Positions 10,166-61,606 of a DNA stretch of 64,000 nt are shown here, piece by piece. Origin of the DNA: Patescibacteria group bacterium (GTDB taxonomy: Bacteria; Patescibacteriota; Patescibacteriia; JBDRGY01). Under the pieces are notes generated by a model that worked only from the letters and a program-made list of their open reading frames with translations, had not been told where the DNA came from and did no database searches. Position 1 is the first letter of the stretch; the number at the start of each line of letters is the position of its first letter. Position numbers and translations under genes: made by a program. The stretch lies in contig JBDRGY010000013.1 in NCBI GenBank assembly GCA_043817315.1, positions 8,663 through 72,662 of the forward strand, in the 5' to 3' direction.

Positions 10166-10169
10166 ATCA

Positions 10170-10442: not shown

Positions 10443-10446
10443 TCAT

Positions 10447-10665
10447 GTGGGATTATTAATTAATCCCCGTCGTTCTCGGTTTTGGACCACGTCAGTCGCG
10501 GAACCCCGTCATCCGGGGATGACAGGGACTGACGTAGTGGAGACCTGCGTTCTACATTGCCAGCCAGAGGCTGGTCCGCCCCGGGCGGAAACTATCCCTA
10601 GGTCGCCTGCAGCGACCGGGATCCCGGCCCCGCGGACAGCGGGGACCAGGGACACCCCCAAAATA
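10447..10665 (-). repeat. GC-rich structured element B, degenerate tRNA-Trp-like copy related to element A
   Basis: About 65 percent GC with many nested hairpins. It shares the blocks AATGT.G, GGTCTCCAC, GACGGGGT, GGTCCAAAACC and ACGRGGG, in the same order, with element A and with the tRNA-Trp anticodon arm. Confidence 0.4.
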
Positions 10666-11754: not shown

Positions 11755-11773
11755 ATATCCTCCTGATATATTA

Positions 11774-11929
11774 TTATTTGGTCTCTTTATGGGGAGTATG
11801 CTTCTGGCACCATTTACAGAATTTTTTCAATTCTAAACGATTGCGCAGAGTTTTCTTATTTTTCTTGGAAAAATAATTAACCCTTTTGCATTCGGTGCAT
11901 TCCATTTTGATCAGATTGTCCTGTGACAT
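11774..11929 (-). CDS. rpmG: 50S ribosomal protein L33
   Basis: [51 protein letters not shown] has the L33 Cys motifs and RLELKKF/HKE signature. The ORF-track N-terminal extension is rejected. Confidence 0.75.
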
Positions 11930-11984
11930 AGAAATATGTTTAATATTTTTTGGGTAACTCTGGAGCCAAGGAAGCCCCGGATCG

Positions 11985-12075
11985 CAGTCCGGGGGAACCC
12001 CCAACCTGCTGTTTATGCCGCCTTAGGCGGCACCCCGCCAGAGGCGGTAGCAAACATCGCCATAATTACTTACGA
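11985..12075 (-). pseudogene. partial degenerate copy of the tRNA-Thr(UGU) 3' half
   Basis: Minus strand ...CATAAACAGCAGGTTGGGGGTTC-CCCCGGACTGCGATCCGGGG-CTTCCTTGGCT. It has 20 nt identical to the tRNA-Thr anticodon-stem/variable/T-stem region, and the T-loop is replaced by a GC hairpin. Confidence 0.4.
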
Positions 12076-12085
12076 GGTGGCTCAA

Positions 12086-12157
12086 AGCCGAGGAAGGGAA
12101 TCGAACCCCCAACCTGCTGTTTACAAAACAGCTGCTCTACCATTGAGCTACCTCGGC
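12086..12157 (-). tRNA. tRNA-Thr (anticodon UGU)
   Basis: Minus strand GCCGAGGTAGCTCAATGGTAGAGCAGCTGTTTTGTAAACAGCAGGTTGGGGGTTCGATTCCCTTCCTCGGCT has a cloverleaf with anticodon loop UUUGUAA. Confidence 0.85.
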
Positions 12158-12174
12158 AAAACTTGGGGTGGTTG

Positions 12175-12260
12175 TGGTGGGCGGAGTAGGATTCGAACCT
12201 ACGAAGGCAAAAGCCATCTGATTTACAGTCAGACCCAGTTGACCACTTTGGTATCCGCCC
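12175..12260 (-). tRNA. tRNA-Tyr (anticodon GUA), long variable arm, CCA encoded
   Basis: Minus strand GGGCGGATACCAAAGTGGTCAACTGGGTCTGACTGTAAATCAGATGGCTTTTGCCTTCGTAGGTTCGAATCCTACTCCGCCCACCA. Confidence 0.85.
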
Positions 12261-12419
12261 ATATGTATTTTAAATAACCCTATTCATTTTTTTATGAATC
12301 TGATTTATCCCATAGCCCGCTAGACGCAGTAGCGTCTGAGGAGTGAGGGGCACTCATGCGGAGGTTGAAGCGGAAGAAATTTGATTACTGGAACGCAAGC
12401 CGAAGCATGAGATGAGCTG

Positions 12420-12485
12420 AGCCCAGAAGCGGACTCGAACCGCTGACCTACTCCTTACCATGGAGTTGCCTGCCCGCCAAGCGCC
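12420..12485 (-). pseudogene. partial degenerate copy of tRNA-Thr(GGU)
   Basis: gacctactccttaccatggagttgc is identical to the anticodon arm of the adjacent tRNA-Thr(GGU), but the D and T arms are altered and the acceptor cannot pair. Confidence 0.35.
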
Positions 12486-12488
12486 TGG

Positions 12489-12560
12489 AGCCGACGGTCG
12501 GACTTGAACCGACGACCTACTCCTTACCATGGAGTTGCTCTACCACTGAGCTACGTCGGC
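12489..12560 (-). tRNA. tRNA-Thr (anticodon GGU)
   Basis: Minus strand GCCGACGTAGCTCAGTGGTAGAGCAACTCCATGGTAAGGAGTAGGTCGTCGGTTCAAGTCCGACCGTCGGCT. Confidence 0.85.
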
Positions 12561-19025: not shown

Positions 19026-20204
19026 GTGAAAAAGAGGGATGTGGAACAGTATCCTGTTGGCAGCCCGGAGCGCGTAACCGCCGATTTTCTGAGGCGAGCC
19101 AGTCTCGGCAAACGACCAGCCCTTTCTTTCGCCGATGAGCACAATCCGATGGAAGCGGCCCGATTGGCCACTACAGTGCTGTACTGTGGCAACCCTGGTT
19201 TCATCCCCCTGCTCCTTGGAGACATGAAGGGTCTCAACCGCTTCATCCGGGCCAGACACTTGGCTGGCTACCGTTTTCGCAGAAGGCTGCCGGAATTCAT
19301 CATCCTGGGGCGCTTTTGGACTGACACCTGCGGCAACTTCGGTCGCATCCAGCAGACCGACATCCCAGAAGAAGTGATCGTCCAGCTACCCAGCTTGATG
19401 ACTCGGGAAGACTACTCTAGGGTAGCTAAGAGATGCCGGGCACAAGCCGACAAGGATCCGGAGCACACCTACTGGAGCGTTCCTATAGAGAGCAGCGTTC
19501 CTCCAGCTGGCCTGCTCTGTCCGGTTTGCGGCAACGCCTGGAACCTCAGCAACTGCCATGATACCGTGGTCACTCACCGAACCGAATCCATCCCTTTGTC
19601 TGACTTCGTTGGTTGGAGACTGGGTCAGGTCACCGCACATTTCAATCGCACTCCAGATGCAGTGATGCGCATGCAGTCAGATATCATGATCCGCAATGAC
19701 CGTCACATTGACCTGACACCCCATCCCGACTACGATACCCTAGTTCTCAACGAACGAGGCTGGGTGTCCGCCAAGGACGGGATCACGGATTACTACCAGG
19801 TTGAAGAGGGCGATGAAGCTTTCTTTAACATCTGGCAGTTCCGCCATCTGGCCTGTCAACGAGCCTGGCTTCAGGCCAAGGAACGAGAATACTTCCGCAA
19901 GATGTTCAGCGACGCCGGGATACCAGTCAGACGAATGCAGACCATTCCCAACGAGTACGACCCCAGCTATCCTCATTATGCTCCTTGGTTTATGGTCTAC
20001 ACCCCGATTGGCACCTTCAAGATTGGGTGGCGCAAACGGGTGATCAACATCGACTGGACCAAGGCTGAGGGTCAGTACGATGGCCTGTTTGCTGACCAGG
20101 ATGTTACCCAAGGTGCCAACCATGTTCACGCCTGGGGGACCGAGAAGGGCACTGAATACCTGAGTCGTATTGCCGAAGCCTCTCAGGCTGTGCTAGGATC
20201 CTAA
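19026..20204 (+). CDS. hypothetical protein (GC-rich island)
   Basis: GTG start with upstream GAGAGGAGG. 392 aa with a CPVCGNAWNLSNCHD Cys/His cluster and no recognisable family. Confidence 0.45.
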   Translation: MKKRDVEQYPVGSPERVTADFLRRASLGKRPALSFADEHNPMEAARLATTVLYCGNPGFIPLLLGDMKGLNRFIRARHLAGYRFRRRLPEFIILGRFWTDTCGNFGRIQQTDIPEEVIVQLPSLMTREDYSRVAKRCRAQADKDPEHTYWSVPIESSVPPAGLLCPVCGNAWNLSNCHDTVVTHRTESIPLSDFVGWRLGQVTAHFNRTPDAVMRMQSDIMIRNDRHIDLTPHPDYDTLVLNERGWVSAKDGITDYYQVEEGDEAFFNIWQFRHLACQRAWLQAKEREYFRKMFSDAGIPVRRMQTIPNEYDPSYPHYAPWFMVYTPIGTFKIGWRKRVINIDWTKAEGQYDGLFADQDVTQGANHVHAWGTEKGTEYLSRIAEASQAVLGS

Positions 20205-20345
20205 CACTCTCATTAATCACGCGTCCCCGTCCGCAAGGACTCAGGGGCGCTTTTTTTATATTAAAAAAGGTCCTGCACCTACGCTTGCGCGCTTGGTGCA
20301 GGACCTGTCGTTCGAACTCACTCCGTCCCAGAGGACGAGAGGGAG

Positions 20346-21302
20346 TTACTGCTGTGGAACCCTCGAACGATTCCGGGTGTCAAGCCAGGCCGGCTGACCC
20401 CAGTTCTGAGACGCGCTTGCATCCCAGACCATGGTAGCCTTGCCTGACTCAACCGCTTTGAGCCAGACCTCGCGCCGGATCTCCAGCTCCTTGAGCTGGA
20501 CCTCCTTCTTGATCTCGAGATCACGCATCTGGAGGTAGGCTGGATTGGCCGCGACAGCTGCCCCGATCTGATTGATCCGAGCAACTTCCTGGTCAGCGGC
20601 CAACCTTCTGATCTCCGCCTCCCAGATCTCCTGGGGTGCCTTAACGTTGGAGAGCGACATATCGAGCAACTCGATAGGAATGTCGGCCTCAGCGTAGACC
20701 TTCTTGGCCATCGCCCCCAACTCGAGCTCGATCTTCGGACGATTCCTCTGAATGTCTCGATAGTCGACGTATTCCCGGAAAACCTCCCTGGTACCCGCTC
20801 GCAGCTTCATGGCCGCGAAGTGCTCATGAATCATCTCGGTGGTGATTATGAACACTCTGGGGTCATCCGGAACTCGCGGATCCATCGATGACGGAATCGG
20901 GGTGATCGAGTTGATGATCAGGTTGATGTATTCCGGCGTAACCTTGACAATCTCTCGGTAGTAAACGTCGGCCGTTACCTGCGCCACTTCACCGGTCTTC
21001 GGATGTGGGGCACAATCGATCATGTGGTTGACCCGATCGGGCATAAGTTCGGCCGGCAGGTAGCGATCCTTGATCTGGACTGCCGTCACCTCGACCTGGA
21101 CTACGTAGCTGCCCTTGCCACCAGCGCCGAGCTTGCCGATGTCGACCTGACCGGGTTCCAGAATCTGGCCAGTCGGACCCTCAGGGGTGACCTCCATAGC
21201 CACCCAACCCTGCTGAGTGGTAACGTAGTTCGAGCATCCGGCCATGAACATCACGGCCAGCGCGACGACGATCAGAAACAGCTTGTTGAGATTCCTATCC
21301 AT
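20346..21302 (-). CDS. lipoprotein with SPFH/band-7-like domain (tentative)
   Basis: Lipobox FMAGC. The central region has loose SPFH-like blocks (VTADVYYREIV..., ...IELLDMSLSNVKAPQEIWEAEIRRLAADQE) and a coiled-coil C-terminus. Confidence 0.4.
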   Translation of the reverse strand: MDRNLNKLFLIVVALAVMFMAGCSNYVTTQQGWVAMEVTPEGPTGQILEPGQVDIGKLGAGGKGSYVVQVEVTAVQIKDRYLPAELMPDRVNHMIDCAPHPKTGEVAQVTADVYYREIVKVTPEYINLIINSITPIPSSMDPRVPDDPRVFIITTEMIHEHFAAMKLRAGTREVFREYVDYRDIQRNRPKIELELGAMAKKVYAEADIPIELLDMSLSNVKAPQEIWEAEIRRLAADQEVARINQIGAAVAANPAYLQMRDLEIKKEVQLKELEIRREVWLKAVESGKATMVWDASASQNWGQPAWLDTRNRSRVPQQ

Positions 21303-21354
21303 GGGGATAGTTCTCCTTTCCTGACAGGCGAAGATTATCCGATTGGATCATCCT

Positions 21355-21675
21355 CTAGTTGTCACCGATCCGGCGATCCAGAGCTTCTTTCTGCTGCTCG
21401 ATGCCAGTTCGGTCCTGCCCCCTTCGCTCCGACAGATTGACGCTGAGCGAGTTGAACAGGTTGAGCCCCAGCACCAGGGCGATGATCATGATCACCGTCC
21501 AGCGGATGCTGTGAATCCACTTCCTGCTCGCAATCTCGCTACGAGGCATGTTACGCAGCACCAGTCTCGTGACGTACAGAACGATGATGACAGCGATGAT
21601 AGCCGCCACGAACCAGCCTTTGTACATGGGCCAGACTGCGACCCAGCGCTCGGCCAGACTCATCGAGTTAAGCAT
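21355..21675 (-). CDS. small 2-TM membrane protein (possible NfeD-like partner of the SPFH lipoprotein)
   Basis: AGGAGG lies 6 nt before the internal Met (MLNSMSLAERW...). The gene is directly upstream of and co-oriented with the SPFH-like gene. Confidence 0.35.
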   Translation of the reverse strand: MLNSMSLAERWVAVWPMYKGWFVAAIIAVIIVLYVTRLVLRNMPRSEIASRKWIHSIRWTVIMIIALVLGLNLFNSLSVNLSERRGQDRTGIEQQKEALDRRIGDN

Positions 21676-21943
21676 TCCTACCTCCTTCATTCCGGAGAAA
21701 CGTAACAATACTCCACCACTAATCCATTTCACCTCCTGGCCAACCAACGGCCGGTTACTCAAACTGGTTTTATCCCTTCGGATTTTAAAAGTACTATCTA
21801 GCCAATACTTCAGCTAAACAGAATATACTAACATACCTTTCCCGATTTGTCAACCCTGAAAAAAAAGAAAAGGCGCAGTTTTTTGTTTTAATAAATAATT
21901 CCCGCCTAAGGCGGGCAGGTATCTGATTTGACGGAAATGAAGA

Positions 21944-21973
21944 GGCGCCGTTTCGCTTCCGCGAAACGGCGCC
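21944..21973. terminator. strong bidirectional intrinsic terminator
   Basis: GGCGCCGTTTCGC-TTCC-GCGAAACGGCGCC is a perfect 13-bp stem flanked by A/T runs. Confidence 0.5.
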
Positions 21974-22013
21974 TTCGTTGTGAACTCATTCCATCCAGGT
22001 AGGACAGAGCAAG

Positions 22014-22691
22014 TTACTCCGGAAGATCCGGACAGAACTTGATGACTTCGGATACGTCAGCCACTGACTGAATCCAGGGACTATCCAGATCCGAGATGAC
22101 CACGTAGGCCTGACAGTAGTCAAGTCCTGCAAGTTCAGGCTCTACTAAAGCGTACATCAACAGCCACAGAGTAACTGCTGGTTCGTTGCTAACTCCAATG
22201 GTCAGATGGGCATCTTCAAAACCCGAGACCAGGAAACTGCCTACTGCAGTCAGGGCCTGCTGTAAAGGCTGATCTCTGAACAGTTCAGCTGTATTGGCAG
22301 CGGCACAGAGCATCCAGTTGAGACCTCGGCTCTGGTGGCGTTTCCACCAACCATCTCTCTCGATCCAGTGCAGACTGATCATCTGCCTAATTCTCTCATC
22401 CTCATCAACTTGATTAGGATGAAAGAGCTCCCAAGCAGTCAACTCATGCTTGGGCAGACCGCCGTGCCTGAAGACCGGTTTGCCGAAAGTCCCGGTCAGT
22501 CTGGCCTGCAAGTCCAGATAGAGAGGACTAAGGGCCTGGCATTCCTGGATACCTTCTACAGAAAGATTGGTCCAAACCGTAGAAGTTCCCCTTCCTCTGA
22601 CCGGAGTGGCATTACGGATAAACACAGTGCAGTTGTTACCGTTCACTTCGGCAATCAGTTTCATTACCTCTTCCGGTGTCCTGGCAATCAT
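22014..22691 (-). CDS. hypothetical protein (GC-rich island)
   Basis: 225 aa, no recognisable motifs, and GC content matches the 19.0-22.8 kb island. Confidence 0.4.
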   Translation of the reverse strand: MIARTPEEVMKLIAEVNGNNCTVFIRNATPVRGRGTSTVWTNLSVEGIQECQALSPLYLDLQARLTGTFGKPVFRHGGLPKHELTAWELFHPNQVDEDERIRQMISLHWIERDGWWKRHQSRGLNWMLCAAANTAELFRDQPLQQALTAVGSFLVSGFEDAHLTIGVSNEPAVTLWLLMYALVEPELAGLDYCQAYVVISDLDSPWIQSVADVSEVIKFCPDLPE

Positions 22692-35092: not shown

Positions 35093-35227
35093 TCTTTTGA
35101 TACTAAGCTCTTTAACCAAGGAAGGTCATATGGCTAAGCCCAGGACTGGCCTGATCCAGTGGTAATCCACAAGATCGGTGCCCCTATTCTTTGTGCTTTT
35201 CTGTTGCTGATGCAGCTGATTAGCTTT

Positions 35228-35300
35228 CTTAAGAGCACCTCTCCCACACCATAATCTGAGTGTGGGATTTTTTTATCCTGCCTCCCACATGGTGCAGGAT
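35228..35300 (+). terminator. two tandem intrinsic terminators after thrS
   Basis: cccacaccataatctgagtgtggg+T8 and cctgcctcccacatggtgcagg+T5. Confidence 0.5.
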
Positions 35301-35370
35301 TTTTGACAAAATTATTTCATTTTGTTAAGTTTATTGACCGAACTAATCGCTCTATACACGGGGGGCTATT

Positions 35371-35601
35371 ATGCTCAAACTGTTTGGGGTCCTGGGTCTT
35401 TGCATGGTCTTCAGCCTCGGCTTTTGTACCTTCATGGTCTGTCTGATGCCTCCTTTTTCCCATCCTGATCACATCCACAAAATGCCCTATGATTACCGAC
35501 GATGGATAAGGAAAACCAAGGGCAGGCGAATCGCCGTCGCCATGTTGGGACTAGTCGTTTGCCTAATCGGCTTTTTCTCCTTGATGCATGTTCTCCACTA
35601 A
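35371..35601 (+). CDS. small hydrophobic protein (76 aa)
   Basis: TTGACC-N17-TATACA promoter at about 35336-35364, a GGGGGG SD, and two TM helices. Confidence 0.35.
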   Translation: MLKLFGVLGLCMVFSLGFCTFMVCLMPPFSHPDHIHKMPYDYRRWIRKTKGRRIAVAMLGLVVCLIGFFSLMHVLH

Positions 35602-35617
35602 CCAAAGGAGAAACGCT

Positions 35618-35806
35618 ATGGGCACAAACGCCTGGGCAGTAAGAGTACGACAGCGGTTTTCCCGCTTCAGCTCAGTGCCAATGAGCAGATTACTTGAGCG
35701 TGCGGTTGTAATCGTTCTTCTGCTCTGCGTCACCCTGATTCTGACAACCTGGTTGCTGGAGTCTATTGCCGGCAAGTCTGTTCATTTCTTCTACATCTTG
35801 ATGTAG
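35618..35806 (+). CDS. small membrane protein (62 aa)
   Basis: AAAGGAG lies 7 nt upstream of the ATG. One TM helix. Followed by terminator gagcagg..cctgctc+T6. Confidence 0.35.
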   Translation: MGTNAWAVRVRQRFSRFSSVPMSRLLERAVVIVLLLCVTLILTTWLLESIAGKSVHFFYILM

Positions 35807-35859
35807 CTCCTGGAGCAGGTATCTATTCCTGCTCTTTTTTATTGGGGAAAAGCTTTATA

Positions 35860-35888
35860 TTGACATAGTTGCTACATAAGTATAAAGT
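35860..35888 (+). promoter_or_regulatory. promoter of unit 1: TTGACA-N17-TAAAGT
   Basis: ttgacatagttgctacataagtataaagt. The same architecture recurs five times in 2.2 kb. Confidence 0.5.
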
Positions 35889-35891
35889 CTA

Positions 35892-36176
35892 CTTGGCTAC
35901 ATATCGGAGGAAAACCAGTATTGGGCTGATCTGTTGTGGGTTTAGACTCGCTATCTGGGACTGACATCCCCGGATGAATGTGCGCACTGGCGAGGGGCGC
36001 TGGACCCACAATGGACTTCATCAAGGGGCTGGCCCCTTCTCCCGATATGGCGGTCTGGGTGCGATCCAGACCAGCCTTTCAAAGCCGAAAGGCCACCTCA
36101 AAAGAGGTGTATTCCTACAGCGCCTGATGTCTCCTTCGCCCCGTGATCCTGTGAGGTCATTGGGGCGATTTTTTAT
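35892..36176 (+). ncRNA. candidate structured RNA, unit 1 (about 285 nt, GC-rich, ends in intrinsic terminator)
   Basis: From the predicted TSS to terminator cgcccc..ggggcg+T7. Shares GGGGCGCTGG..TGGACCCAC blocks with unit 2. No credible ORF. Confidence 0.35.
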
Positions 36177-36205
36177 TTGACAACCAATAGAAGATAATAT
36201 AAAGT
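36177..36205 (+). promoter_or_regulatory. promoter of unit 2: TTGACA-N17-TAAAGT
   Basis: ttgacaaccaatagaagataatataaagt. Confidence 0.5.
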
Positions 36206-36211
36206 CAGACC

Positions 36212-36460
36212 TGCATCCCTCGTTAAACCAGTACTGTGTGAGGGAAATCGGGTTTATTAATACCGGCTGGTCCAGAGCGACACTCTGGGAATAACGCACC
36301 AGCCAGGAACGACGCTGGGCCCGATAGACAACTCCGCAGGGGCGCTGGCCTCTAGCCTGGGATTGTGTGGACCCACGAGGTCCATATCGTTACCCGAAAG
36401 GGATTTTGCGTTACAGCGTCGGCTGTCATTGGCTCTGCTTCGGTAGAGCCAATTTTTTAT
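36212..36460 (+). ncRNA. candidate structured RNA, unit 2 (about 250 nt), paralog of unit 1
   Basis: Contains cgcaggggcgctgg...tgtggacccacga. Ends with ggctctgcttcggtagagcc+T6. Confidence 0.35.
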
Positions 36461-36475
36461 TGGGGAAAACTCCCC

Positions 36476-36504
36476 TTGACAGCCAAAAGCCCAAGGAGTA
36501 AATT
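36476..36504 (+). promoter_or_regulatory. promoter of unit 3: TTGACA-N17-TAAATT
   Basis: ttgacagccaaaagcccaaggagtaaatt. Confidence 0.45.
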
Positions 36505-36510
36505 CATAAC

Positions 36511-36812
36511 TGGTTGTTGTTGTCGTTTGGCAAGTCAGCAAGTAAGTTAGGCGAAAGCCCATGGCTTTCCAGGCCCTCTCGTTTTTATGAGATGGCCAAG
36601 TCCCACGCCCTAGTTGACAGCTAGGCCAAGATCATGACCAGATGGGGCGCTGATACCGGGCCAGACGCGGTCGCCTAAAAGAAACCTGATAAGCCTTACG
36701 GCAGCAGCCGTGGTCGACTATTCGGCCACACGAGACGCGCTAGGATGACGCACCAGGTATCAGTGTCATTCGCCCCTACTGGCTAGCCAGATGGTGTAGG
36801 GGCGATTTTTTT
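36511..36812 (+). ncRNA. candidate structured RNA, unit 3 (about 300 nt)
   Basis: Contains the shared motif gatggggcgctgatacc. Ends with cgcccctac...gtaggggcg+T7. Confidence 0.3.
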
Positions 36813-36822
36813 ACTCCAGGGG

Positions 36823-36851
36823 TTGACAAATCAATAATCTTGTGATAATCT
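36823..36851 (+). promoter_or_regulatory. promoter of unit 4: TTGACA-N17-TAATCT
   Basis: ttgacaaatcaataatcttgtgataatct. It drives the secreted-protein gene. Confidence 0.45.
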
Positions 36852-36921
36852 ATCCTGTCTTCAGGGACAATATTGAAGACGGGTTTTTAAGTACCTTAAC
36901 AGGGGAATCATCCCCAAAACC

Positions 36922-37533
36922 ATGGAGGAGCGTATGCTAAAGTTACGTTCTTTGGTTGTGGTCATTGTTACCTTGGCGGCCCTCCTGCCGCTCTCAGCCC
37001 TGGCGGTGGACTCTGCTCAGTTCCAGACCTGCGCCATTGTACTGGTTCCGGTACAGGGCAACTTCAATGCCTGTGCTATCGGTCAGCTGGTCAATGTACC
37101 CAGTGAAGGTCTGGAGAATTGGTATTACTACGCTGGTCCCGCCTGGATGTCTGATGGCGGAGCCTTGCTGGTGATGCCGCTGGTCGGTCAGATCACCAAT
37201 CGGGGACTGGAAGGTCAGGACGCCACCATCGCCTCACTGTGGAGCATCTGGCAACCCACCGAGAAATTCAAGCTGTTCGTCCAAGGTGACATGTACACCT
37301 ATGGCGACGAAACAGAATATCTCGGCTGGTTGACTACCGACTACTTTCTGACCCCGGATGTTACCTGCGGATTCCACGTCGAGAGGAATGTCGGTGATCT
37401 CTACACCGACACTACCATCGGACCCCACGTTGGAATCACTAAGGGTCCCTGCCGCCTGGAGTTACAGTGGCACGGCTCTATCGAGGGCAAGACCCACGCC
37501 CTCCGCTTGTACACCGAATTCCTGTTCTTCTAG
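36922..37533 (+). CDS. secreted hypothetical protein with C-terminal aromatic residue (possible beta-barrel or phage-derived; GC-rich)
   Basis: Signal peptide MLKLRSLVVVIVTLAALLPLSALA. The likely true start is the ATG at 36934, preceded by GGAGGAG. The protein ends ...RLYTEFLFF and is followed by a terminator ggggag+T7. Confidence 0.45.
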   Translation: MEERMLKLRSLVVVIVTLAALLPLSALAVDSAQFQTCAIVLVPVQGNFNACAIGQLVNVPSEGLENWYYYAGPAWMSDGGALLVMPLVGQITNRGLEGQDATIASLWSIWQPTEKFKLFVQGDMYTYGDETEYLGWLTTDYFLTPDVTCGFHVERNVGDLYTDTTIGPHVGITKGPCRLELQWHGSIEGKTHALRLYTEFLFF

Positions 37534-37595
37534 ACAGGAACACTCCCCAAAGCCATCACGGCCTAGGGGAGTTTTTTTGATTGTGGATATCTGGC

Positions 37596-37624
37596 TTGAC
37601 AGTCAAACCTACCTGTTATAAAGT
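37596..37624 (+). promoter_or_regulatory. promoter of unit 5: TTGACA-N17-TAAAGT
   Basis: ttgacagtcaaacctacctgttataaagt. Confidence 0.5.
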
Positions 37625-37630
37625 CATAAT

Positions 37631-38027
37631 CACCGTGATCAGCCAAGTTACGATGCGGATGAGGGCCTGTGGGCACAAAGAGAGACTGCCTAGTCAAGAC
37701 AGAACAGGGGTGCACCAGTCTAAAGACGGCGCAAAAACCCGCACGGCACCGCATGGAGGGCTAGCTGGAGCTCAAGTCACGGTCAGGTGGGCCATGACGA
37801 CGACGGAAAAAAGATGCCTACCTAGAGTCAGGCACGGATGGCACTCTCGGGATTATCCTGTAGAAGTCTGGGGTCCGTCCCAGCATGCAGGGCAAGAACC
37901 TGCTCTACGGGCGACATTCCCGAGCGAGGATGCCTAAAACCGGCATGACTAGCTCGAAAGAGCAAACACGAAGGCGCCGCATCTGTCTATCCCTGTGCAG
38001 GCCTGCACAGGGATATTTTTTTTACTC
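37631..38027 (+). ncRNA. candidate structured RNA, unit 5 (about 390 nt, GC-rich), ending in a strong terminator just upstream of miaB
   Basis: Terminator ccctgtgcaggcctgcacaggg+T8. No SD-associated ORF. I looked for RNase P, tmRNA and SRP hallmarks and did not find them. Confidence 0.3.
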
Positions 38028-42549: not shown

Positions 42550-43227
42550 TCAAAGAACGTCGATACCGGCGTCCCACTGTCTCTTGACGAAATCTTCCAA
42601 ACACAGCGGCACATAATCCACTTCTGGTTCATCCTCGGCTGGTCCACCCTCTCCGGTCTGGACCCTAAACCGGTGATCGTCAGGCGGAGCTGGCTTACCA
42701 TCAATTAGTCTCATCGATCTAGTGGCTCGGCGTCCGCAATCAATGCAAGTAGCCTTGATCTTGTAGATTCTGGCCTCAGGCAGCATGGCCACGGCCGCTG
42801 ATGCCGGGAACGGCTGCCCCAGATGATCAGTGTCCAGGGCGCAGAAAACGATGTACTTGCCATAGCGATGATACAGGTTGAGAATCACCCTGGCGATGTC
42901 CGGGTCGAAGAACTGACCCTCATCAATAACGATGACATCGGCCGCTAGTACATCCTCGTCAGTTAGCATCACGCTGGGGTTCTTGGCATCGATGATCTGA
43001 GCTGGAAACTCCGGTAGTTCATGACCGCCGTGAGACTTGGGCCTAGTCGGATCTTCATCTCTAGTGTCTCTGGATGGCTTAATGAAAATCCCCGTCACCT
43101 CCGCACCGTGCTCAATCGCCCGCAGAACCGCCCTCAATTTCCCGAAAGCCTTTTCCTCTGTCTTGCCGGCCCACATTGGGCCTATGTAAACCCTGATCGT
43201 CCGATCCCAACCATGACTGTTAGCCAT
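42550..43227 (-). CDS. tdk: thymidine kinase (GC-rich, likely acquired)
   Basis: P-loop GPMWAGKTEE, VIDEGQFF, and C-terminal Zn ribbon CIDCG. About 58 percent GC against an AT-rich genome. Confidence 0.8.
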   Translation of the reverse strand: MANSHGWDRTIRVYIGPMWAGKTEEKAFGKLRAVLRAIEHGAEVTGIFIKPSRDTRDEDPTRPKSHGGHELPEFPAQIIDAKNPSVMLTDEDVLAADVIVIDEGQFFDPDIARVILNLYHRYGKYIVFCALDTDHLGQPFPASAAVAMLPEARIYKIKATCIDCGRRATRSMRLIDGKPAPPDDHRFRVQTGEGGPAEDEPEVDYVPLCLEDFVKRQWDAGIDVL

Positions 43228-46042: not shown

Positions 46043-46552
46043 CTATTTCTTTGCTTTCTCAGATTTATATTGACGATACTTAACTCCGGCCAAATCCAGC
46101 ATTTTTCGAGAAGCTATCCAGGAATCTTCGTCATGGTATTTATCACTCTCATACACAATTTCTTTAACTCCGTTCTGAATAATTGTCTTAGCACATTCAT
46201 TACAAGGAAAAAGGGTGCAATAAAGAATACAGTCTTTAGTTCTGGCGTTGGCGTTATAAATAGCATTTTCTTCGGCATGAACAATGTAGGCATATTTACT
46301 TTCACAAAATCCCCCATCTCTTTTCCAGGGCAAATCTTCGTTGGCTACCCCCCTGGGAAAACCGTTGTAGCCCAAACCAACCACAACGTTATTGGCATCA
46401 ACCAGTACTGCCCCCGCCTGGGTGTTGGGATCTTTGGAGCGATCAGAAATTACATGAGCCATTCTCATAAAACATTCATCCCAAGAAATGTAATTATTTC
46501 TTTGTGCCGATTGCCTTTTTCTCTTGGTTTTTAACCCACTTTTTTTAGCCAT
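46043..46552 (-). CDS. dCMP deaminase
   Basis: HAEENAI and CTLFPCNECAK are the zinc-binding CDA motifs. Confidence 0.8.
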   Translation of the reverse strand: MAKKSGLKTKRKRQSAQRNNYISWDECFMRMAHVISDRSKDPNTQAGAVLVDANNVVVGLGYNGFPRGVANEDLPWKRDGGFCESKYAYIVHAEENAIYNANARTKDCILYCTLFPCNECAKTIIQNGVKEIVYESDKYHDEDSWIASRKMLDLAGVKYRQYKSEKAKK

Positions 46553-46574: not shown

Positions 46575-47258
46575 TTAAATTTGGATTTTAATACCGGGAC
46601 CCATTGAAGAACAGATGGTGGCTCCTCTAAAGAAGACACCTTTGGTCTCATCCGGTTTGGCCTTCTTGATAGCGTCCAAAAATGCCCCTAGATTGGCCAA
46701 TAATTTATCATCGTCAAAGGAAATCTTACCTATCATCTGATGGACATTGGAAAAATCATCATTACGAAAATTAACCTTACCCGCATTTAGTTCTTTGATG
46801 GTCTGGGCCGGATCAGGTGTTATGGTTTCGTTTCTGGGATTAGGCATCAGGCCTTTCTGCCCTAGGGTTTTTGCAATAGGAGCGATTTTTTTCATCATAT
46901 CCGGAGTAGCCAAGGCCACTTCGAAATCACATTTCTTTTTGGTTTTTATTTGATTGATCAACTCGTCACCGCCGACAATTTGGGCACCAGCTTCCTTGGC
47001 TTGATCAGCCTGTTTGCCTTCAGCAAAAACAGCAATCTTTTTGGACTTGCCCATGCCATGTGGCAAAACAAAAGAACCTCGCACAATCTGCGAAGCATGT
47101 TTGGGGTCAATGCCCAGCTTGAGGTGAACCTCAATAGATGAGTCAAATTTCTCTTGAGCAACCTCTTTGACCAATTTAATGGCCTCTTCTTTAGAATAGA
47201 CTTTTTCTTTGTCAATCTTGGCGCTTGAAGAGCGAAAACGCTTTCCATGTTTTGGCAT
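46575..47258 (-). CDS. rplA: 50S ribosomal protein L1
   Basis: MPKHGKRFRSS...KKIAVFAEGKQADQAKEAGAQIVGGDELI. Start set at the internal Met preceded by AAGGAGG. Confidence 0.9.
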   Translation of the reverse strand: MPKHGKRFRSSSAKIDKEKVYSKEEAIKLVKEVAQEKFDSSIEVHLKLGIDPKHASQIVRGSFVLPHGMGKSKKIAVFAEGKQADQAKEAGAQIVGGDELINQIKTKKKCDFEVALATPDMMKKIAPIAKTLGQKGLMPNPRNETITPDPAQTIKELNAGKVNFRNDDFSNVHQMIGKISFDDDKLLANLGAFLDAIKKAKPDETKGVFFRGATICSSMGPGIKIQI

Positions 47259-47395
47259 ATAGCCTCCTTGTGGTTCGAGCCCCCGTGGAATTCGGGGTCC
47301 CACTTAATTATCAAGATGTTTACCCCGTCAGAAGCGCCCGCCTCTAATAATTAGCGCTACCGAAGCTATAATATTTAGCTTCTTATAGGGTAGAT

Positions 47396-47425
47396 ACATT
47401 ATATAGGCAGTCTAAATTGTAGTCA
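47396..47425 (-). promoter_or_regulatory. rplA promoter TTGACT-N17-TATAAT (minus strand) with structured leader
   Basis: Minus strand ttgactacaatttagactgcctatataat. The roughly 140-nt leader contains gggaccccgaattccacgggggctc. Confidence 0.45.
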
Positions 47426-47483
47426 AATATTCTTTAATAGTCTCAGAAAACGCCTATTTATTAGCGAACAAATATGGTGTTCG

Positions 47484-47513
47484 TAAAAAAAGGGCGTTCT
47501 TTTAAAACGCCCT
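47484..47513 (-). terminator. intrinsic terminator after the TolB-like gene
   Basis: Minus strand gggcgttttaaaagaacgccc+T7 directly follows the stop. Confidence 0.55.
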
Positions 47514-48479
47514 GGTGCTTCCCGTACGGGAAGCGAAGGTGTAGACAAACACGTTGTACTGGAAATCGCCGCCAAACTGATCAGCAAAGCAGAGATGCCG
47601 GCCACAGGGTGACCAGGCAGGGGCAATGGCCATGCCGAGACTGGGAACATAGAGAAGCAGCTGATCGTTTTCTAGGTCTCTGACTGCAATCTCTTTCTTG
47701 CCTCTGGCCGTGGTATTGTAGGCCAGGAAACGACCATCAGGAGAGGGTGCGCCCAGCCAGTTGTCGAAGGAATCTAGCACTGCTGGCTTGACACTGCCTA
47801 CATCCGGGTCGAATATCCAGATTGATGGCGTAGGCGGGAAGGTCAATTCCGCAAAGGCAGAGATAATCACTCCCTGCGGTGCCGGCCGAGGATACCAAAC
47901 CCGAATCAGTCCTGTCTGGAATTTGTCAGTCTGACCATCTGGCCTGATCCGCAGCAGTATCGAACCCACTCCGTACAAGCTATCGGCAATGCAATAGAGA
48001 TTGCCCGAAGCGTCGTATGCCGGGTCGCTGTATTGGAACACTGAATCGGCGGCCAGAAGGCAACGAGCCTCTTGGCCTCCATTGGTCCGAGCCGGACAGA
48101 CGAAGATACTGCTCGGGGAATTATCTGTCCAAGACTGCCGGCGGATAAAGGCCAACTGTTCTCCGTCTGGCGACCAGGCAGGCTGCAGATCATCATCCTG
48201 AGAACTGGTTATTCTGATAGCGGGCTCTGAGCCGGCTTCGGCCCGATTGATCCAGAGATCAAAATCTCCCGCCATATCCGAGGCAAAGGCAATCTGCTGG
48301 CCACTTGGCGACCAACTGGGATTCCAGCTGCAGTTATCGATGAAGGTAACCGAGGACAGTCCGTATTCCTGATAGAAAGACCAGGGTACCTCCTCCTGAT
48401 CGGAACAGGAAATTATCAGCAAGACCAATATGGTCAGAAACAGCATAGCCGGCAGATCTTTCACCAGAAGTTCTCTCAT
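47502..48479 (-). CDS. TolB-like beta-propeller (PD40/WD40-like repeat) lipoprotein or secreted protein, GC-rich
   Basis: Repeats WSPSGQQIAF, WSPDGEQLAF, PSPDGRFLAY and WSPCGRHLCF. Signal peptide with LLIISCSD. About 55 percent GC. Inserted between rplK and rplA. Confidence 0.6.
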   Translation of the reverse strand: MRELLVKDLPAMLFLTILVLLIISCSDQEEVPWSFYQEYGLSSVTFIDNCSWNPSWSPSGQQIAFASDMAGDFDLWINRAEAGSEPAIRITSSQDDDLQPAWSPDGEQLAFIRRQSWTDNSPSSIFVCPARTNGGQEARCLLAADSVFQYSDPAYDASGNLYCIADSLYGVGSILLRIRPDGQTDKFQTGLIRVWYPRPAPQGVIISAFAELTFPPTPSIWIFDPDVGSVKPAVLDSFDNWLGAPSPDGRFLAYNTTARGKKEIAVRDLENDQLLLYVPSLGMAIAPAWSPCGRHLCFADQFGGDFQYNVFVYTFASRTGSTRAF

Positions 48480-48598
48480 TGTCCGCCTCCTTATCTCCAG
48501 TTATGCACCTGTAATGATCGAACAGGCAACCTTAACAAAAGAGACTTGATTTGTCAAGCCTCTTTATGCTTTGATATGTAATTTGGAAATGTAATTGG

Positions 48599-49021
48599 TT
48601 ATTCTACGGTAATTCCCATTTGCCTGGCTGTTCCTTCCACTATCCTCATGGCTCCTTCAATGTCTTTAGCATTTAAATCAGGCATCTTCTTCTCGGCGAT
48701 TTCTTTAACCTGGGCTTTGGTTACTTTGCCCACTTTTTCTTTCAAAGCCGAGCCAGAGCCCTTTTGCAGATTAGCCGCCTTTTTCAATAAGGAAGCCGCC
48801 GGTGGAGTCTTTAATATATAGGTGTAAGTTCGGTCTTCGAAAACCGTTATCTCCACGGGAGTAATGTCTCCACCTTTATCTTTGGTGTCATTATTAAATT
48901 TGGTACAAAATTCCTGAATATTAAGACCGTGTTGGCCCAAAGCCGGGCCGATTGGCGGGGCTGGTGTCGCTTTACCGGCCGGGATTTGCAATTTAATAAC
49001 TGTTTTGATTGGTTTTGCCAT
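48599..49021 (-). CDS. rplK: 50S ribosomal protein L11
   Basis: [38 protein letters not shown]. Confidence 0.9.
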
Positions 49022-49022
49022 A

Positions 49023-49568
49023 TTAAAGCTTTTTTACTTGTAAGAAATCTAGTTCTACCGGGGTTTCTCGACCAAACAGGGAAACCAACACCTTGATTTT
49101 ACCCCTGGCTTCATCAACTTCAGAAACTTTTCCTTCCATCTCCTTGAAAGGACCATCTGTGATGCGAACCGGCGTATCAACGGTAACATCAATCTTATAT
49201 TTGGGTTCTTCCACTCCCATTCTCTTTTGCAGTCCCTTGATTTCATTATCGGAAATCGGGGTCGGAGTAGTTCCGGATCCAACAAAACCGGTAACATTGG
49301 GTGTATTACGGACTACATACCAGGAATCATCTGTTACAATCATTTCTACTAAAACATAACCGGGAAAAATCTTTTCGGTTACAGTTTTTCTTTTACCGTT
49401 TTTAATCTTAATTTTCTTTTCGGTCGGTATTAAAACACTAAAAATCTTGTCTTCCATACCCATGGAATCAATTCTCTGTTTTAAGTTTTTGGACACATTT
49501 TCTTCATAACCAGAATAAGTATGTAATACATACCATCTGCGTCCTTGTTGTCCCATTTGTTTGGGCAT
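49023..49568 (-). CDS. nusG: transcription termination/antitermination factor NusG
   Basis: [11 protein letters not shown]... is the NGN domain, and there is a KOW motif near the C-terminus. Located after secE. Confidence 0.85.
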
Positions 49569-49577
49569 AGCGTTGAC

Positions 49578-49763
49578 CTAGGTAATAATCCTGTCTAAGA
49601 CAATAGTGAAGACGAAATCCAAAGTGCCCAGAAAAGCGGCCATTATAACAGTCACTCCCAATACCATCAAAGTGTAGCGGATGGTCTGCTGCCTGGTCGG
49701 CCAGACCACCTTTCTCATTTCATCCTTTGACTCTCTTAGATAGCTTGTAAGTTTATTAATCAT
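49578..49763 (-). CDS. secE: preprotein translocase subunit SecE
   Basis: 61 aa with a single TM helix. It is in the conserved position upstream of nusG. Confidence 0.7.
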   Translation of the reverse strand: MINKLTSYLRESKDEMRKVVWPTRQQTIRYTLMVLGVTVIMAAFLGTLDFVFTIVLDRIIT

Positions 49764-49855: not shown

Positions 49856-52045
<2,190 letters not shown>

Positions 52046-59761: not shown

Positions 59762-60055
59762 ATGCCTCAGTTCGAACTGCAGTTCCAGTTTGTGGCTATG
59801 ATGCAGCCAGATCAGGCTGAAGTGGTAGCAGCACGAATGGAGAAGGTTGTCCCTTTCCCCCACAACACCCAATCCCTGGTCACCAAGGAAGGCAGCAGCT
59901 GCATGATCTGGTTACAGGTTGACGGTCCTTTTTCTGACAATGCCTATGCCACCGATTGGGCCAAAGCGGCCCGGAGAGATATGTTGGCTACCGTTACCGA
60001 AGAAGAAACTGTCGTTCCTCACGTTATCGTGGTGGCCCAGCTCAAGGAGGATTGA
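59762..60055 (+). CDS. small hypothetical protein, tandem paralog 1 (GC-rich)
   Basis: GGAGGGG SD, then MPQFELQFQFVAMMQPDQAEVVAARMEKVVPFPH. Confidence 0.4.
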   Translation: MPQFELQFQFVAMMQPDQAEVVAARMEKVVPFPHNTQSLVTKEGSSCMIWLQVDGPFSDNAYATDWAKAARRDMLATVTEEETVVPHVIVVAQLKED

Positions 60056-60057
60056 TT

Positions 60058-60387
60058 TTGCCTTTATTCGAGATCCACTGGAAGTTCGTGGCCAACCTGA
60101 CTCCGCATCAAGCCGCCACCGCTGTAGTACTACTGCAACATCGAGTGCCCGAGCTGGCTGATTGCGGGTCAGAAATCACCGATAACCGCGAACCGCCCAA
60201 CCGGATCAAGTTGATCGCTGAATATGAGTGCGACGACCAACAAGCTGCCCAAGATTGGGCTGATCTCATTCAAGGTAAGGTAATCGCGTCAGGAGCCATC
60301 AGCTGCCTCAAGCCTGAATACCGCATGGTAATCAGTGCTCCGAACAAACCTCTACCAAAGGAGGTTCCATGCCCCGCTTCCGGATAA
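60058..60387 (+). CDS. small hypothetical protein, tandem paralog 2 (TTG start)
   Basis: AAGGAGG lies 7 nt upstream of the TTG. LPLFEIHWKFVANLTPHQAATAVVLLQHRVPELA parallels paralog 1. Confidence 0.35.
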   Translation: MPLFEIHWKFVANLTPHQAATAVVLLQHRVPELADCGSEITDNREPPNRIKLIAEYECDDQQAAQDWADLIQGKVIASGAISCLKPEYRMVISAPNKPLPKEVPCPASG

Positions 60388-60489
60388 CCATCAAGTTCTC
60401 TGACCCGATCACTCAAGGTAATACCAGAGATTTCAATGACTAGTTCTTTCTGCCCTTGGTTAACACCGAGGGCTTTTTTATTTATTAAA

Positions 60490-60520
60490 AAAACCCGCTT
60501 CCTGACGAAAGCGGGTATGT
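60490..60520. terminator. bidirectional intrinsic terminator
   Basis: aaaaaaacccgctt-cctgacgaa-agcgggtatg is flanked by A and T runs between convergent genes. Confidence 0.45.
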
Positions 60521-60522
60521 GA

Positions 60523-61323
60523 TCAAGCGACCAGGGCTGGTTCCAGCCTGGTGCGCATACTGAGACTATGCTCAATCTCAGCAGTTACTTCCTCGATTGC
60601 TATCAGAGGATTGGTGTAGGGATCAATGTCGATCATCAACTGATCAGCCCCCAGGCTCAGGGCAAAAGCCGGGGTCACTAATCCGGTCAGATCAGCATAG
60701 CGCCAACCGGGTTGCACTGGAACGATCTTCTGACAGCCGGCCAAGGCCGTCATCTCGCTCAGGCCGATCAGATCCTGACCAGAGCAGAACAGCTTGGTTA
60801 CCCCTGCCCATTTTGCCTTTAGAGCATAATGCAGGGCCCGAGAACCTGGTTCCTTCCAGGAATAGCCTGTTGTCTTACTGACGCTGAACAGGTCATCATC
60901 GAACAGACCAGGTACCCCTGTATCGACTACCAGGATGCATTCCTGATCTCCCCCCTGAAACTGCCCAGTTGCCCACTCCAGACAAGTTGGGTGCATCTCT
61001 CCGGATACGGCCAGAGCAGCGACATAGTCATTTTCAGCTACTCGACCTACCCAGGTCATGAAATCTCTTGTGTTAGATTGAAGATGTGGGCGGTCGTCGA
61101 TCCAAACCAGCTTACCCAGTTCCCTGATAGCGACCATAAGTTCTCCTGCCAAAGGTTTACGTAATACAGGCAGGGTGTAGGCGTAGTAAGTGTTAACGTG
61201 GATCACGAATCCTGCCACTACCGGCAGATGACCCACGGTTTCCACGATCTGCCGGGCTCGCGAGTAATCGCTCATCAGATGATCCAAGACCACCCAGACC
61301 ATGGAATCGGCTGTTCGGGTCAT
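60523..61323 (-). CDS. hypothetical protein (GC-rich; loosely TIM-barrel/OMP-decarboxylase-like but lacking the catalytic Lys)
   Basis: VWVVLDH...WIDDRPHLQSNTRDF resembles the OMPDC DxKxxDI block, but with Arg in place of Lys. Assignment is not reliable. Confidence 0.35.
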   Translation of the reverse strand: MTRTADSMVWVVLDHLMSDYSRARQIVETVGHLPVVAGFVIHVNTYYAYTLPVLRKPLAGELMVAIRELGKLVWIDDRPHLQSNTRDFMTWVGRVAENDYVAALAVSGEMHPTCLEWATGQFQGGDQECILVVDTGVPGLFDDDLFSVSKTTGYSWKEPGSRALHYALKAKWAGVTKLFCSGQDLIGLSEMTALAGCQKIVPVQPGWRYADLTGLVTPAFALSLGADQLMIDIDPYTNPLIAIEEVTAEIEHSLSMRTRLEPALVA

Positions 61324-61606
61324 TTGTTCCCCCTTTGAAATGAGCATTTTTTAATCGATATTATACCTTATCTTGAGAAAAATAATCGGTCAAGCCCGGT
61401 ATTTACCTAATCTTAGCCAAAAAGCCATATTGAACCTAGAATTGATTAGTCCCAAAAAAAAGCTAATATTAGCTAAAAAACCTGCATTTTTTATCCCCAA
61501 GCCTACCATTGACTTATCCAAAAATGTCTGTATCTTTAAACTAGCCTTTAAATAAAGGGCAAAATCTATCTTTTAACAAAATTTTTTTTATTTTAGATTC
61601 AAAATT

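Follow-up and report, generated by a model that had tools for sequence, protein, structure and literature searches.

A PD40 gene between rplK and rplA

In the 64,000-nt stretch of DNA analysed here (positions 8,663 to 72,662 of contig JBDRGY010000013.1, assembly GCA_043817315.1, from a Patescibacteria group bacterium; hereafter the window), an open reading frame (ORF) for a PD40-repeat protein is located between rplK and rplA, the genes for the ribosomal proteins L11 and L1. A reading made from the sequence alone had interpreted this ORF as foreign DNA that disrupted a nearly universal ribosomal operon. Instead, the locus is an old, dispensable and very fast-diverging cassette of a small clade, and not a fresh operon disruption. 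We consider it probable that this cassette is accessory and exchangeable, that it encodes a cell-envelope protein, and that it replaced a gene for a DUF5671 protein in a lineage-specific slot between rplK and rplA.

The description of the ORF as a GC-rich gene of the PD40 type was confirmed. Its product matches the Pfam family PD40 (PF07676) with 68.8 bits against a cutoff of 20.9 (E = 3e-19), which assigns it to this family, and it is identical to a hypothetical protein of a Patescibacteria group bacterium metagenome-assembled genome in NCBI. The GC content of the ORF is 0.541 (0.555, 0.479 and 0.589 at codon positions 1, 2 and 3), as compared to 0.416±0.025 for 47 host ORFs, whose GC content at third codon positions (GC3) is 0.436±0.054; the corresponding z-values for the PD40 ORF are 5.0 for GC and 2.8 for GC3. 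The tetranucleotide usage of the ORF correlates with that of the host at r = 0.54, which is at the bottom of the range observed for 1-kb host chunks (0.68±0.06), and it is closer to that of the other GC-rich islands in the window than the host chunks are.

A recent, one-off disruption is contradicted by the finding that homologues of the PD40 protein occupy the same slot in four other lineages besides the window (Table 1), with synonymous sites that are near saturation between the lineages. The slot alleles are 320-325 amino acids long, and they share their orientation and flanking signals. In locus L093 the synteny with the window even extends from gyrB through the thymidine kinase (TK) gene. 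The L086 and L093 alleles were missed by a word-indexed homologue search and were found via the neighbouring L1 protein and an exhaustive profile search. This profile search of 1.84e9 representative proteins revealed no further full-length family members made of a single stretch, the other strong matches being long multi-repeat PD40 proteins. Likewise, scanning metagenomes with a pattern of the PD40 subfamily brought up nothing beyond the L001 contig already known and a true TolB operon, which is unrelated. Since the rplK-PD40 arrangement recurs in independent JGI, ENA, NCBI and Logan assemblies, the junctions of the PD40 gene are not assembly artefacts.

Table 1. PD40 alleles found in the rplK-rplA slot. 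GC and GC3 values refer to the first-named locus of each row.
Locus	Source	Identity to window protein	GC	GC3
Window			0.54	0.59
L001/L002	JGI, ENA	52%	~0.52	0.56
L086/L088/L089	Logan, JGI, ENA	35%	0.56	0.61
L087 (C-terminal fragment)	JGI	38%	0.58	0.71
L093/L094/L095	JGI, NCBI, ENA	39%	0.50	0.54
Most neighbouring genes			0.38-0.43	0.31-0.45

The gene is precisely absent from a close relative. In locus L085 (GCA_030617445.1), the L11, L1 and Dcd proteins are 97%, 82% and 94% identical to those of the window, respectively, and the gap between rplK and rplA measures only 210 bp. The L11 protein of locus L003 is identical to that of L085, and both loci have the same sequence up to the end of the L003 contig. 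In these two loci, the T-run of a degenerate rplK hairpin is followed at once by GAACACCTTATTTGTTC, and then, in L085, by the same rplA promoter and L1 motif as in the window. In the window, L001, L086, L087 and L093, the GAACACC box comes after the T-run of the PD40 terminator instead. The unit of insertion or deletion predicted from this comparison is a cassette from about 48534 to 47483, with its junctions in the T-runs of both terminators. The most parsimonious history would be one gain, followed by one loss in the lineage of L085 and L003.

A mobile-element test revealed no meaningful flanking direct or inverted repeats, target-site duplications or template/variable repeats, and no part of the PD40 gene has a second copy in the window. 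An integron cassette and the target of a diversity-generating retroelement were considered and rejected in this test, in which no ORF-by-ORF search for an integrase or reverse transcriptase was made. A phage origin of the PD40 and TK genes is unsupported as well, since a scan of viral contigs and a phage tblastn search with both genes gave only weak generic matches. In L001, a gene for an rve-family transposase (2410-3021, minus strand) is located after the PD40 terminator and the conserved box, at the place where the rplA promoter would be expected, and the contig ends inside this element. Among the PD40-bearing loci, only L001 has such a transposase beside the gene.

Divergence and persistent GC-richness

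Among the six lineages, the PD40 alleles are 33-60% identical, as compared to 91-96% for NusG, 86-97% for L11 and 74-82% for L1. Indeed, the non-coding DNA between the PD40 gene and rplA is better kept than the ORF, with 59-70% identity. The alleles group as (window, L001), (L093, L087) and L086, which is apparently incongruent with the flanking genes: the window and L001 share 52% identity in PD40 and 87% in L11, and the window and L093 share 39% and 96%, respectively. The view of an exchangeable surface-protein locus is derived from its dispensability, from the very divergent allele classes, and from allele relationships that do not follow the flanking genes.

The PD40 gene is compositionally atypical and absent from one close relative, yet equally GC-rich in four other long-diverged lineages. 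According to the sequence-only reading, the same gene with host-like composition in all related genomes would have indicated an ancestral arrangement. The gene is indeed present in the same position in relatives, but it is GC-rich everywhere and one relative is without it. An old transfer that slowly ameliorates fits these observations poorly, because a gene that changes this fast should have reached the composition of the host. Recent independent transfers would require five separate arrivals of the same family in the same slot. The divergence of the gene is several times faster than that of its neighbours, and nevertheless its GC content stays about 12-15 points above the genome in five lineages, which does not agree with the usual notion that foreign DNA slowly ameliorates.

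The syntenic TK gene shares this pattern of GC-richness and hyperdivergence. In the window (42550-43227, minus strand) it has a GC content of 0.544 and a GC3 of 0.59, and in the syntenic position of L093 (8720-9109) these values are 0.528 and 0.65. The two TK proteins are only 36% identical; for GyrB, ThyX, Tmk, Dcd and L1 the identities between the window and L093 are 77-80% (78% for Tmk and ThyX). Together, the PD40 and TK genes offer a case, small but testable, in which a GC bias that is local or associated with recombination could be studied in bacteria.

Unlikely in our view, though quite conceivable, is the alternative that the cassette was acquired once by the ancestor of the clade and was thereafter inherited strictly vertically, with extremely fast divergence in situ under diversifying or relaxed selection. 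In this case GC-biased gene conversion, GC-biased local mutation or selection on codon or mRNA composition would keep the gene GC-rich. The shared slot, orientation, length and flanking signals of the alleles are consistent with vertical descent, as is the fact that the alleles are each other's closest relatives among the 1.84e9 representative proteins. Furthermore, the window and L001 use the same codon at conserved residues with a frequency of 0.45 versus 0.34 at saturation, an excess similar to or above that of the flanks, and the equally GC-rich and hyperdivergent TK gene hints at a process that is independent of the locus. However, the PD40 similarities do not track the L11 distances, the presence/absence polymorphism shows that the locus turns over, and so fast a gene should reach the AT-rich equilibrium of the host unless an unidentified force acts. 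Synonymous-codon identity at conserved residues could not separate vertical descent from allele replacement, a test that had no power because the flanks themselves are near saturation.

A wider idea, which we put forward tentatively and regard as rather doubtful, is that the clade keeps a small number of genes in fixed syntenic positions both GC-rich and hyperdivergent in all lineages, with PD40 and TK among them, and that the PD40 gene is a hypervariable surface determinant. Recombination hot spots that hold ancient allele lineages under GC-biased gene conversion are one possible cause of such a pattern, and localized GC-biased hypermutation is another. If true, the PD40 cassette would serve host attachment or phage evasion, and the conservation of the ribosomal genes would give homology arms for allele exchange.

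Other regions of unusual composition or divergence were also observed. The dCMP deaminase encoded after rplA in L086 (3636-4127) is 37% identical to that of the window, as compared to 94% for L085 and 78% for L093, and its gene may likewise have been replaced. Additional sharp islands of high GC content (0.50-0.61 versus about 0.41) are located at 19026-22691, ~35400-37937 and ~59800-61347 of the window, and their ORFs have no Pfam matches. They include genes for a lipoprotein-like protein (20346-21302, lipobox MAGC) and a secreted-looking protein (36922-37533). In about 1.8 kb at ~35100-36900, with about 50% GC, there is no ORF of more than 101 amino acids and no Rfam match at permissive thresholds; this region could represent decayed genes or an undescribed RNA.

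The rplK-rplA slot among relatives

To place the locus among its relatives, an L11 probe was used to collect 80 species-representative loci, mostly from the Candidate Phyla Radiation (CPR), and secE, nusG, rplK, rplA and dcd were mapped in these and in L001, that is, in 81 loci. The supposedly near-universal adjacency of rplK and rplA was not borne out, as rplA is adjacent downstream of rplK (<250 bp) in only 47 of the 81 loci, and in 32 loci rplK is found without rplA directly next to it. A gene for a DUF5671-type membrane protein fills the gap in 14 loci, and 9 loci have other or unidentified content in this position. In another 9 loci no rplA was found downstream of rplK although more than 1.5 kb of sequence was available, and in the remaining 2 the contig ends too soon after rplK. 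In this part of the Patescibacteria, the rplK-rplA junction should thus be regarded as a site where genes for envelope proteins, and other genes, have landed recurrently.

The DUF5671 (PF18920) proteins encoded in the slot have E-values down to 8.6e-22 and are 277-340 amino acids long; their genes have a host-like GC content. These genes start 10-60 nt after the rplK stop codon, without a terminator, and 20-40 nt separate their ends from the rplA leader element. No homologue of DUF5671 was found anywhere in the window, and no mention of DUF5671 in the literature searched. In a rough neighbour-joining (NJ) tree, the window, L003 and L001 were grouped, with the DUF5671-bearing locus L004 as their sister and a large DUF5671-bearing clade adjoining. 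Because of this tree and the slot census, the rplK-rplA junction appears to have been an already occupied slot in this part of the tree.

Among the relatives, the slot is also filled by genes for dehydrogenases and a lipoprotein. In one sub-clade (L054, L067, L070 and L076) dehydrogenase genes are found together with a gene for a Cys-rich lipoprotein, and in these loci a terminator directly after rplK is followed at once by a -10-like TATAAT or TATACT. L054 has these genes together with a single-repeat DUF5671 gene. One of the PD40-bearing lineages contains between nusG and rplK an extra gene for an 83-amino-acid four-helix-bundle protein of the 23S_rRNA_IVP family (PF05635; L088 1063-1314, L086 699-1163), which represents a further insertion into this gene cluster.

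GTDB representatives account for eight of the loci without rplA, and seven of these eight cluster in the NJ tree. In these seven (L013, L031, L047, L053, L068, L077 and L082), which cluster in the tree of NusG plus L11, rplA is absent from at least the first 3 kb downstream of rplK (from 5 kb in five of the loci), and there is no match to the L1 operator described below. L069, which also has no rplA downstream, groups elsewhere. The seven loci probably belong to the L1-less CPR lineages of the literature; a preprint reports many CPR bacteria without L1 (bioRxiv 10.1101/2022.01.07.475337).

Expression signals and the L1-binding operator

The features of the locus are compiled in Table 2. As the sequence-only reading had stated, the PD40 gene has its own ribosome-binding site and a strong terminator, and hairpins equivalent to this terminator are found 3' of the PD40 gene in L001, L086, L087 and L093. 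The hairpin after rplK is kept in L001, L086 and L093, and is degenerate in L003 and L085. The suggested promoter of the PD40 gene stood in part. A TTGACA-17-TAAG(G/T)T sequence is kept in all four lineages with the upstream region of the gene sequenced (TAAGGT in the window and L093, TAAGTT in L001 and L086), but it is weak and scores under the threshold of the promoter scan. Its -10 region is lost at the L085 junction. It is plausible that this sequence acts as a weak promoter of the PD40 gene, with read-through of the rplK terminator adding to it.

Table 2. Features of the rplK-rplA region. All genes of the region are on the minus strand; positions refer to the 64-kb window.
Feature	Position	Strand	Remarks
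gyrB	49856-52042	-	
secE	49578-49763	-	
nusG	49023-49568	-	
rplK (ribosomal protein L11)	48599-49021	-	Pfam Ribosomal_L11_N and Ribosomal_L11; synteny in 81 loci; nusG and secE directly 5'
Terminator-like hairpin after rplK	48534-48565	-	Hairpin 48565-48538; 12-bp stem with one G.U pair, loop CAAA, then TTTTGTT; read from sequence
Putative weak PD40-gene promoter TTGACA-17-TAAGGT	48529-48557	-	-35 TTGACA inside the rplK hairpin
PD40 cassette (insertion/deletion unit)	47483-48534	-	~1,052 bp ±3 nt; weak -10, ribosome-binding site, ORF, terminator; missing in L085/L003
PD40-gene Shine-Dalgarno sequence AAGGAGG	48486-48492	-	From sequence; 6 nt before ATG 48479
PD40 ORF	47502-48479	-	325 amino acids; Pfam PD40; between rplK and rplA
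PD40-gene intrinsic terminator	47484-47513	-	Hairpin 47513-47491; 10-bp stem overlapping the stop codon, then 7 T
Conserved box GAACACCATATTTGTTC	47466-47482	-	17 nt; GAACA-N7-TGTTC inverted repeat; ~40 nt upstream of the rplA -35
rplA promoter TTGACT-17-TATAAT	47398-47426	-	11/12 consensus match
Insertion in the rplA leader, window only	47318-47389	-	72 nt, two hairpins; from alignment; between predicted start and L1 operator
L1-binding-type operator	47266-47305	-	~40 nt; P1, GA bulge, P2, linker; abuts the Shine-Dalgarno sequence (starts 47269); covariance-model match
rplA (ribosomal protein L1)	46575-47258	-	Pfam Ribosomal_L1, 2.8e-55; 100% match over 227 amino acids (P0121); Shine-Dalgarno AAGGAGG 47269-47263
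dcd (dCMP deaminase)	46043-46552	-	

The rplA gene starts with the ATG at 47258, and the mechanically listed GTG at 47303 is not its start. The claim that rplA has a promoter of its own and a structured leader was upheld. Sites of the TTGACT-17-TATAAT grade number 4 in 64 kb, versus 1.5 expected. The sequence from the PD40 terminator to the rplA start can be aligned between the window, L085, L086, L087 and L093, which share the order GAACA-N7-TGTTC box, TTGAC/TATAAT, GTA(T/C)CTAC, short leader, structured element, Shine-Dalgarno sequence and ATG. In these five, the -35 TTGAC and the -10 TATAAT are invariant while the 17-nt spacer varies, which makes it likely that the predicted promoter is real. 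It was also claimed that rplA has acquired this promoter. This view was not supported, since L085, without the PD40 gene, has the same promoter, which is thus not simply a consequence of the present PD40 gene. The inverted-repeat box upstream of the promoter is kept in the window, L085, L003, L086, L087, L093 and L001, that is, in six lineages including one without the PD40 gene, and it possibly resembles the binding site of a dimeric regulator.

The rplA leader is about 130 nt long. The leader of about 140 nt seen in the sequence-only reading is due to the extra 72 nt at 47389-47318, which are absent from L085, L086, L087 and L093, and of which a search of the window and of 82 loci revealed no second copy. 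When the 134-nt leader was folded as a single sequence, the result was uninformative (z = -1.5). Rfam, applied to the leader and the whole window with both gathering and permissive thresholds, detected only tRNAs and no ribosomal-protein leader family; the sole gathering-level matches in the window are four clustered tRNA genes (10093-12560, minus strand). Because Rfam gave no ribosomal-protein leader family, we built a covariance model of our own.

In the structured element next to the Shine-Dalgarno sequence of rplA, a helix P1 and a GA bulge are combined with a hairpin P2, which is variable, and with a linker of the form G(C/U)UnGnA; a GGGA is conserved. In the window, P1 is GUGG/CCAC (47303-47300 with 47273-47270), P2 is CCCCG/CGGGG, and the linker is GCUCGAA. 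Both helices covary: P1 also occurs as GCGG/CCGC or GAGG/CCUC, with UA, CG and AU pairs exchanged, and all five P2 pairs covary. In the operator alignment, 94.8% of the cells are paired as compared to 71% in shuffles and 36-53% with slid partners, and the covariation score is 0.61 versus 0.15; it should be noted that the seed sequences were chosen by a script that required pairing. An unbiased check was therefore made by running a covariance model from 30 sequences over 788 kb on both strands. This yielded 57 matches at E < 0.03, of which 56 are directly 5' of rplA on the same strand, many of them in loci outside the seed, and none of the 57 is in a locus without rplA. In the window, the only match with E < 0.2 is that at 47305-47266 (32.3 bits, E = 1e-6).

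An L1-interacting RNA with a short bulged stem has been described before rplA in Cyanobacteria, Actinobacteria, Chloroflexi and Firmicutes (Fu et al. 2013, PMC3616713). Judged by its pairing and position, the element 5' of rplA corresponds to the known L1-binding operator, an ancestral feature found before rplA throughout the group, and the comparison of the leader with the L1 autoregulatory site, as proposed earlier, thus led to a positive match with predicted L1 binding. Accordingly, the structured part of the leader beside the ribosome-binding site was not acquired but is ancestral. The 72-nt segment is found in the window only. Because the operator sits directly at rplA, abutting its Shine-Dalgarno sequence downstream of the cassette, L1 autoregulation would be undisturbed by the cassette and preserved despite the insertions into the slot.

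With these findings, it is very improbable that a recent one-off foreign insertion split a universal rplK-rplA operon and forced a new promoter and leader upon rplA. The atypical GC and tetranucleotide usage, the terminator and promoter between the PD40 gene and rplA, and the leader segment unique to the window would all agree with such an event. Against this stand the slot homologues in four other lineages with their near-saturated synonymous divergence, the many relatives with other genes in the slot, the L1 operator that precedes rplA throughout the clade, the same promoter in L085, and the absence of scars of a mobile element in the test made.

The PD40 protein

The protein was modelled with AlphaFold2 from a 32-sequence alignment (pLDDT 89, pTM 0.83). 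It places a helix at the N-terminus (residues 2-28), followed by a short helix and by about 23 strands, which correspond to six blades. Foldseek returned propellers only, with the C-terminal propellers of TolB as the best PDB matches (TMq 0.60-0.65, 17-21% identity), followed by the propellers of S9 peptidases. The N-terminus contains a hydrophobic helix and a lipobox-like LIIS-C25. The lipobox pattern [LVI][ASTVI][GAS]C is fitted by this sequence and by LVIS-C of L001, and the corresponding LFF-C of L086 and LVV-C of L093 are non-canonical. Export of the protein is well supported by these sequence features, and its lipid anchoring at Cys25 is probable. The conservation of several cysteines among the alleles fits with an extracytoplasmic location. 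As suggested by fold and location only, the propeller most likely serves outside the cytoplasm as a module that binds a ligand, which may be a protein, a peptide or a glycan. The PD40 cassette is therefore of interest as a candidate for a variable surface protein in bacteria that are thought to be attached to other cells, and as a target for studies on host and phage interactions.

The designation of the gene as TolB-like holds for the propeller fold only. The protein scores 79.4 bits with the TolB equivalog TIGR02800, far below the cutoff of 343.15, and it has no N-terminal alpha/beta domain (PF04052) by Pfam, the model showing helices and then the propeller. Moreover, its gene has secE-nusG-rplK and rplA-dcd as neighbours in the window, and not tolQ, tolR, tolA and pal. 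A genuine tolQRAB locus that was recovered by chance (L084) looks entirely different. CPR bacteria are generally regarded as having no outer membrane. Taken together, and despite the TolB propellers being its best PDB matches in both sequence and fold, we give practically no credit to the possibility that the product is a genuine TolB belonging to a Tol-Pal system of the envelope.

A probable history of the locus

The sequence of events that we favour would be as follows. In the wider clade, and as far as the rough tree allows, the slot would ancestrally have contained a DUF5671 membrane-protein gene that was co-transcribed with rplK and rplA. In the small clade that includes the window, this gene would have been replaced by the ~1.05-kb cassette, with its weak promoter in the rplK terminator, its strong ribosome-binding site, the ORF and a strong terminator of its own. 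The ORF product would be exported and membrane-anchored, probably through a lipid at Cys25, with a stand-alone six-bladed PD40 propeller as its remaining part. The cassette appears to be dispensable, as a close relative would have lost it by deletion between the T-runs of the two terminators. Three transcription units are predicted at present, namely secE-nusG-rplK up to the terminator, the PD40 gene, and rplA-dcd onward from the conserved sigma-70-type promoter, and the translation of rplA would stay under the control of the ancestral L1-binding operator. For the divergence of the alleles, we favour the view that old allele lineages were exchanged when the conserved flanks recombined; a recombination-associated GC bias may contribute.

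Several points weigh against this history. The promoters, terminators and operon boundaries are predictions from sequence. There are no flanking repeats and there is no integrase in the window, in which no ORF-by-ORF search for integrases or reverse transcriptases was made. A donor lineage is not identifiable, the nearest proteins outside the family being 25-30% identical, and there is no phage source. The loss in L085 and the incongruence of alleles and host tree are probable rather than proven, because the host phylogeny is nearly star-like and based on two or three short proteins. Likewise, fast vertical divergence is inseparable from allele exchange because synonymous sites are near saturation, and the cassette model alone does not explain why a gene that diverges so fast remains GC-rich. 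Lastly, the non-canonical lipoboxes of L086 (LFFC) and L093 (LVVC) leave room for a signal anchor instead of lipidation.

The sharp GC steps at gene boundaries and the several GC-rich islands in the window might suggest an assembly or binning chimera of GC-rich foreign DNA and a CPR contig, an idea of negligible probability given the same junctions in independent JGI, ENA, NCBI and Logan assemblies of five lineages and the conserved, alignable regulatory sequence on both flanks.

Comparison with known systems

The locus belongs to kinds that are already known, combining a propeller protein of the PD40 type with the features of a variable locus flanked by conserved genes and with an L1 leader 5' of rplA. 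The element before rplA shares with the RNA of Fu et al. the short stem, the bulge, the conserved GGGA, the covarying helices and the position directly 5' of rplA, abutting the Shine-Dalgarno sequence. It differs in that it was found here in Patescibacteria and Izemoplasma-like genomes, in that no Rfam family matched and L1 binding is predicted, and in that the operator of the window lies in a separately promoted leader with an extra 72-nt insertion.

The PD40 gene and the DUF5671 gene have the slot, the orientation, a similar size and an envelope protein as product in common. However, the two proteins are unrelated, and the DUF5671 gene has a host-like GC content and no promoter or terminator of its own, so that it would be co-transcribed. 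In comparison with TolB, both proteins have PD40 repeats and are extracytoplasmic, and the predicted six-bladed propeller superposes on that of TolB with TMq 0.60-0.65. In contrast to TolB, which is a soluble periplasmic protein, the PD40 protein has a membrane anchor or lipobox and no N-terminal alpha/beta domain. Besides the low identity of 17-21% and the failure in the equivalog model, it has no Tol-Pal gene context, and its host is probably without an outer membrane.

LpqB-type lipoproteins with beta-propellers provide a comparison from single-membrane (monoderm) bacteria, and one distant match of the PD40 protein, P0042, is annotated as 'LpqB family beta-propeller domain-containing protein'. 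The two types have in common an N-terminal lipoprotein-type signal, which in the PD40 protein is a probable one, an extracytoplasmic propeller, a bacterium without an outer membrane and a presumed binding or scaffold role. The PD40 protein differs from LpqB by being much shorter (propeller only) and by the absence of mtrAB-like two-component genes in its vicinity, and no specific relationship between the sequences was detectable.

Lastly, capsule and O-antigen loci, which have an atypical GC content and are flanked by housekeeping genes, offer an analogy for variable surface-structure loci. Like these, the PD40 locus combines conserved flanks with highly divergent alleles at a fixed site, an atypical composition, a variable presence among relatives, and allele relationships that do not follow the flanks. 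Unlike these, it consists of a single gene with a GC content higher than that of the genome, and it is located inside a cluster of ribosomal-protein genes.

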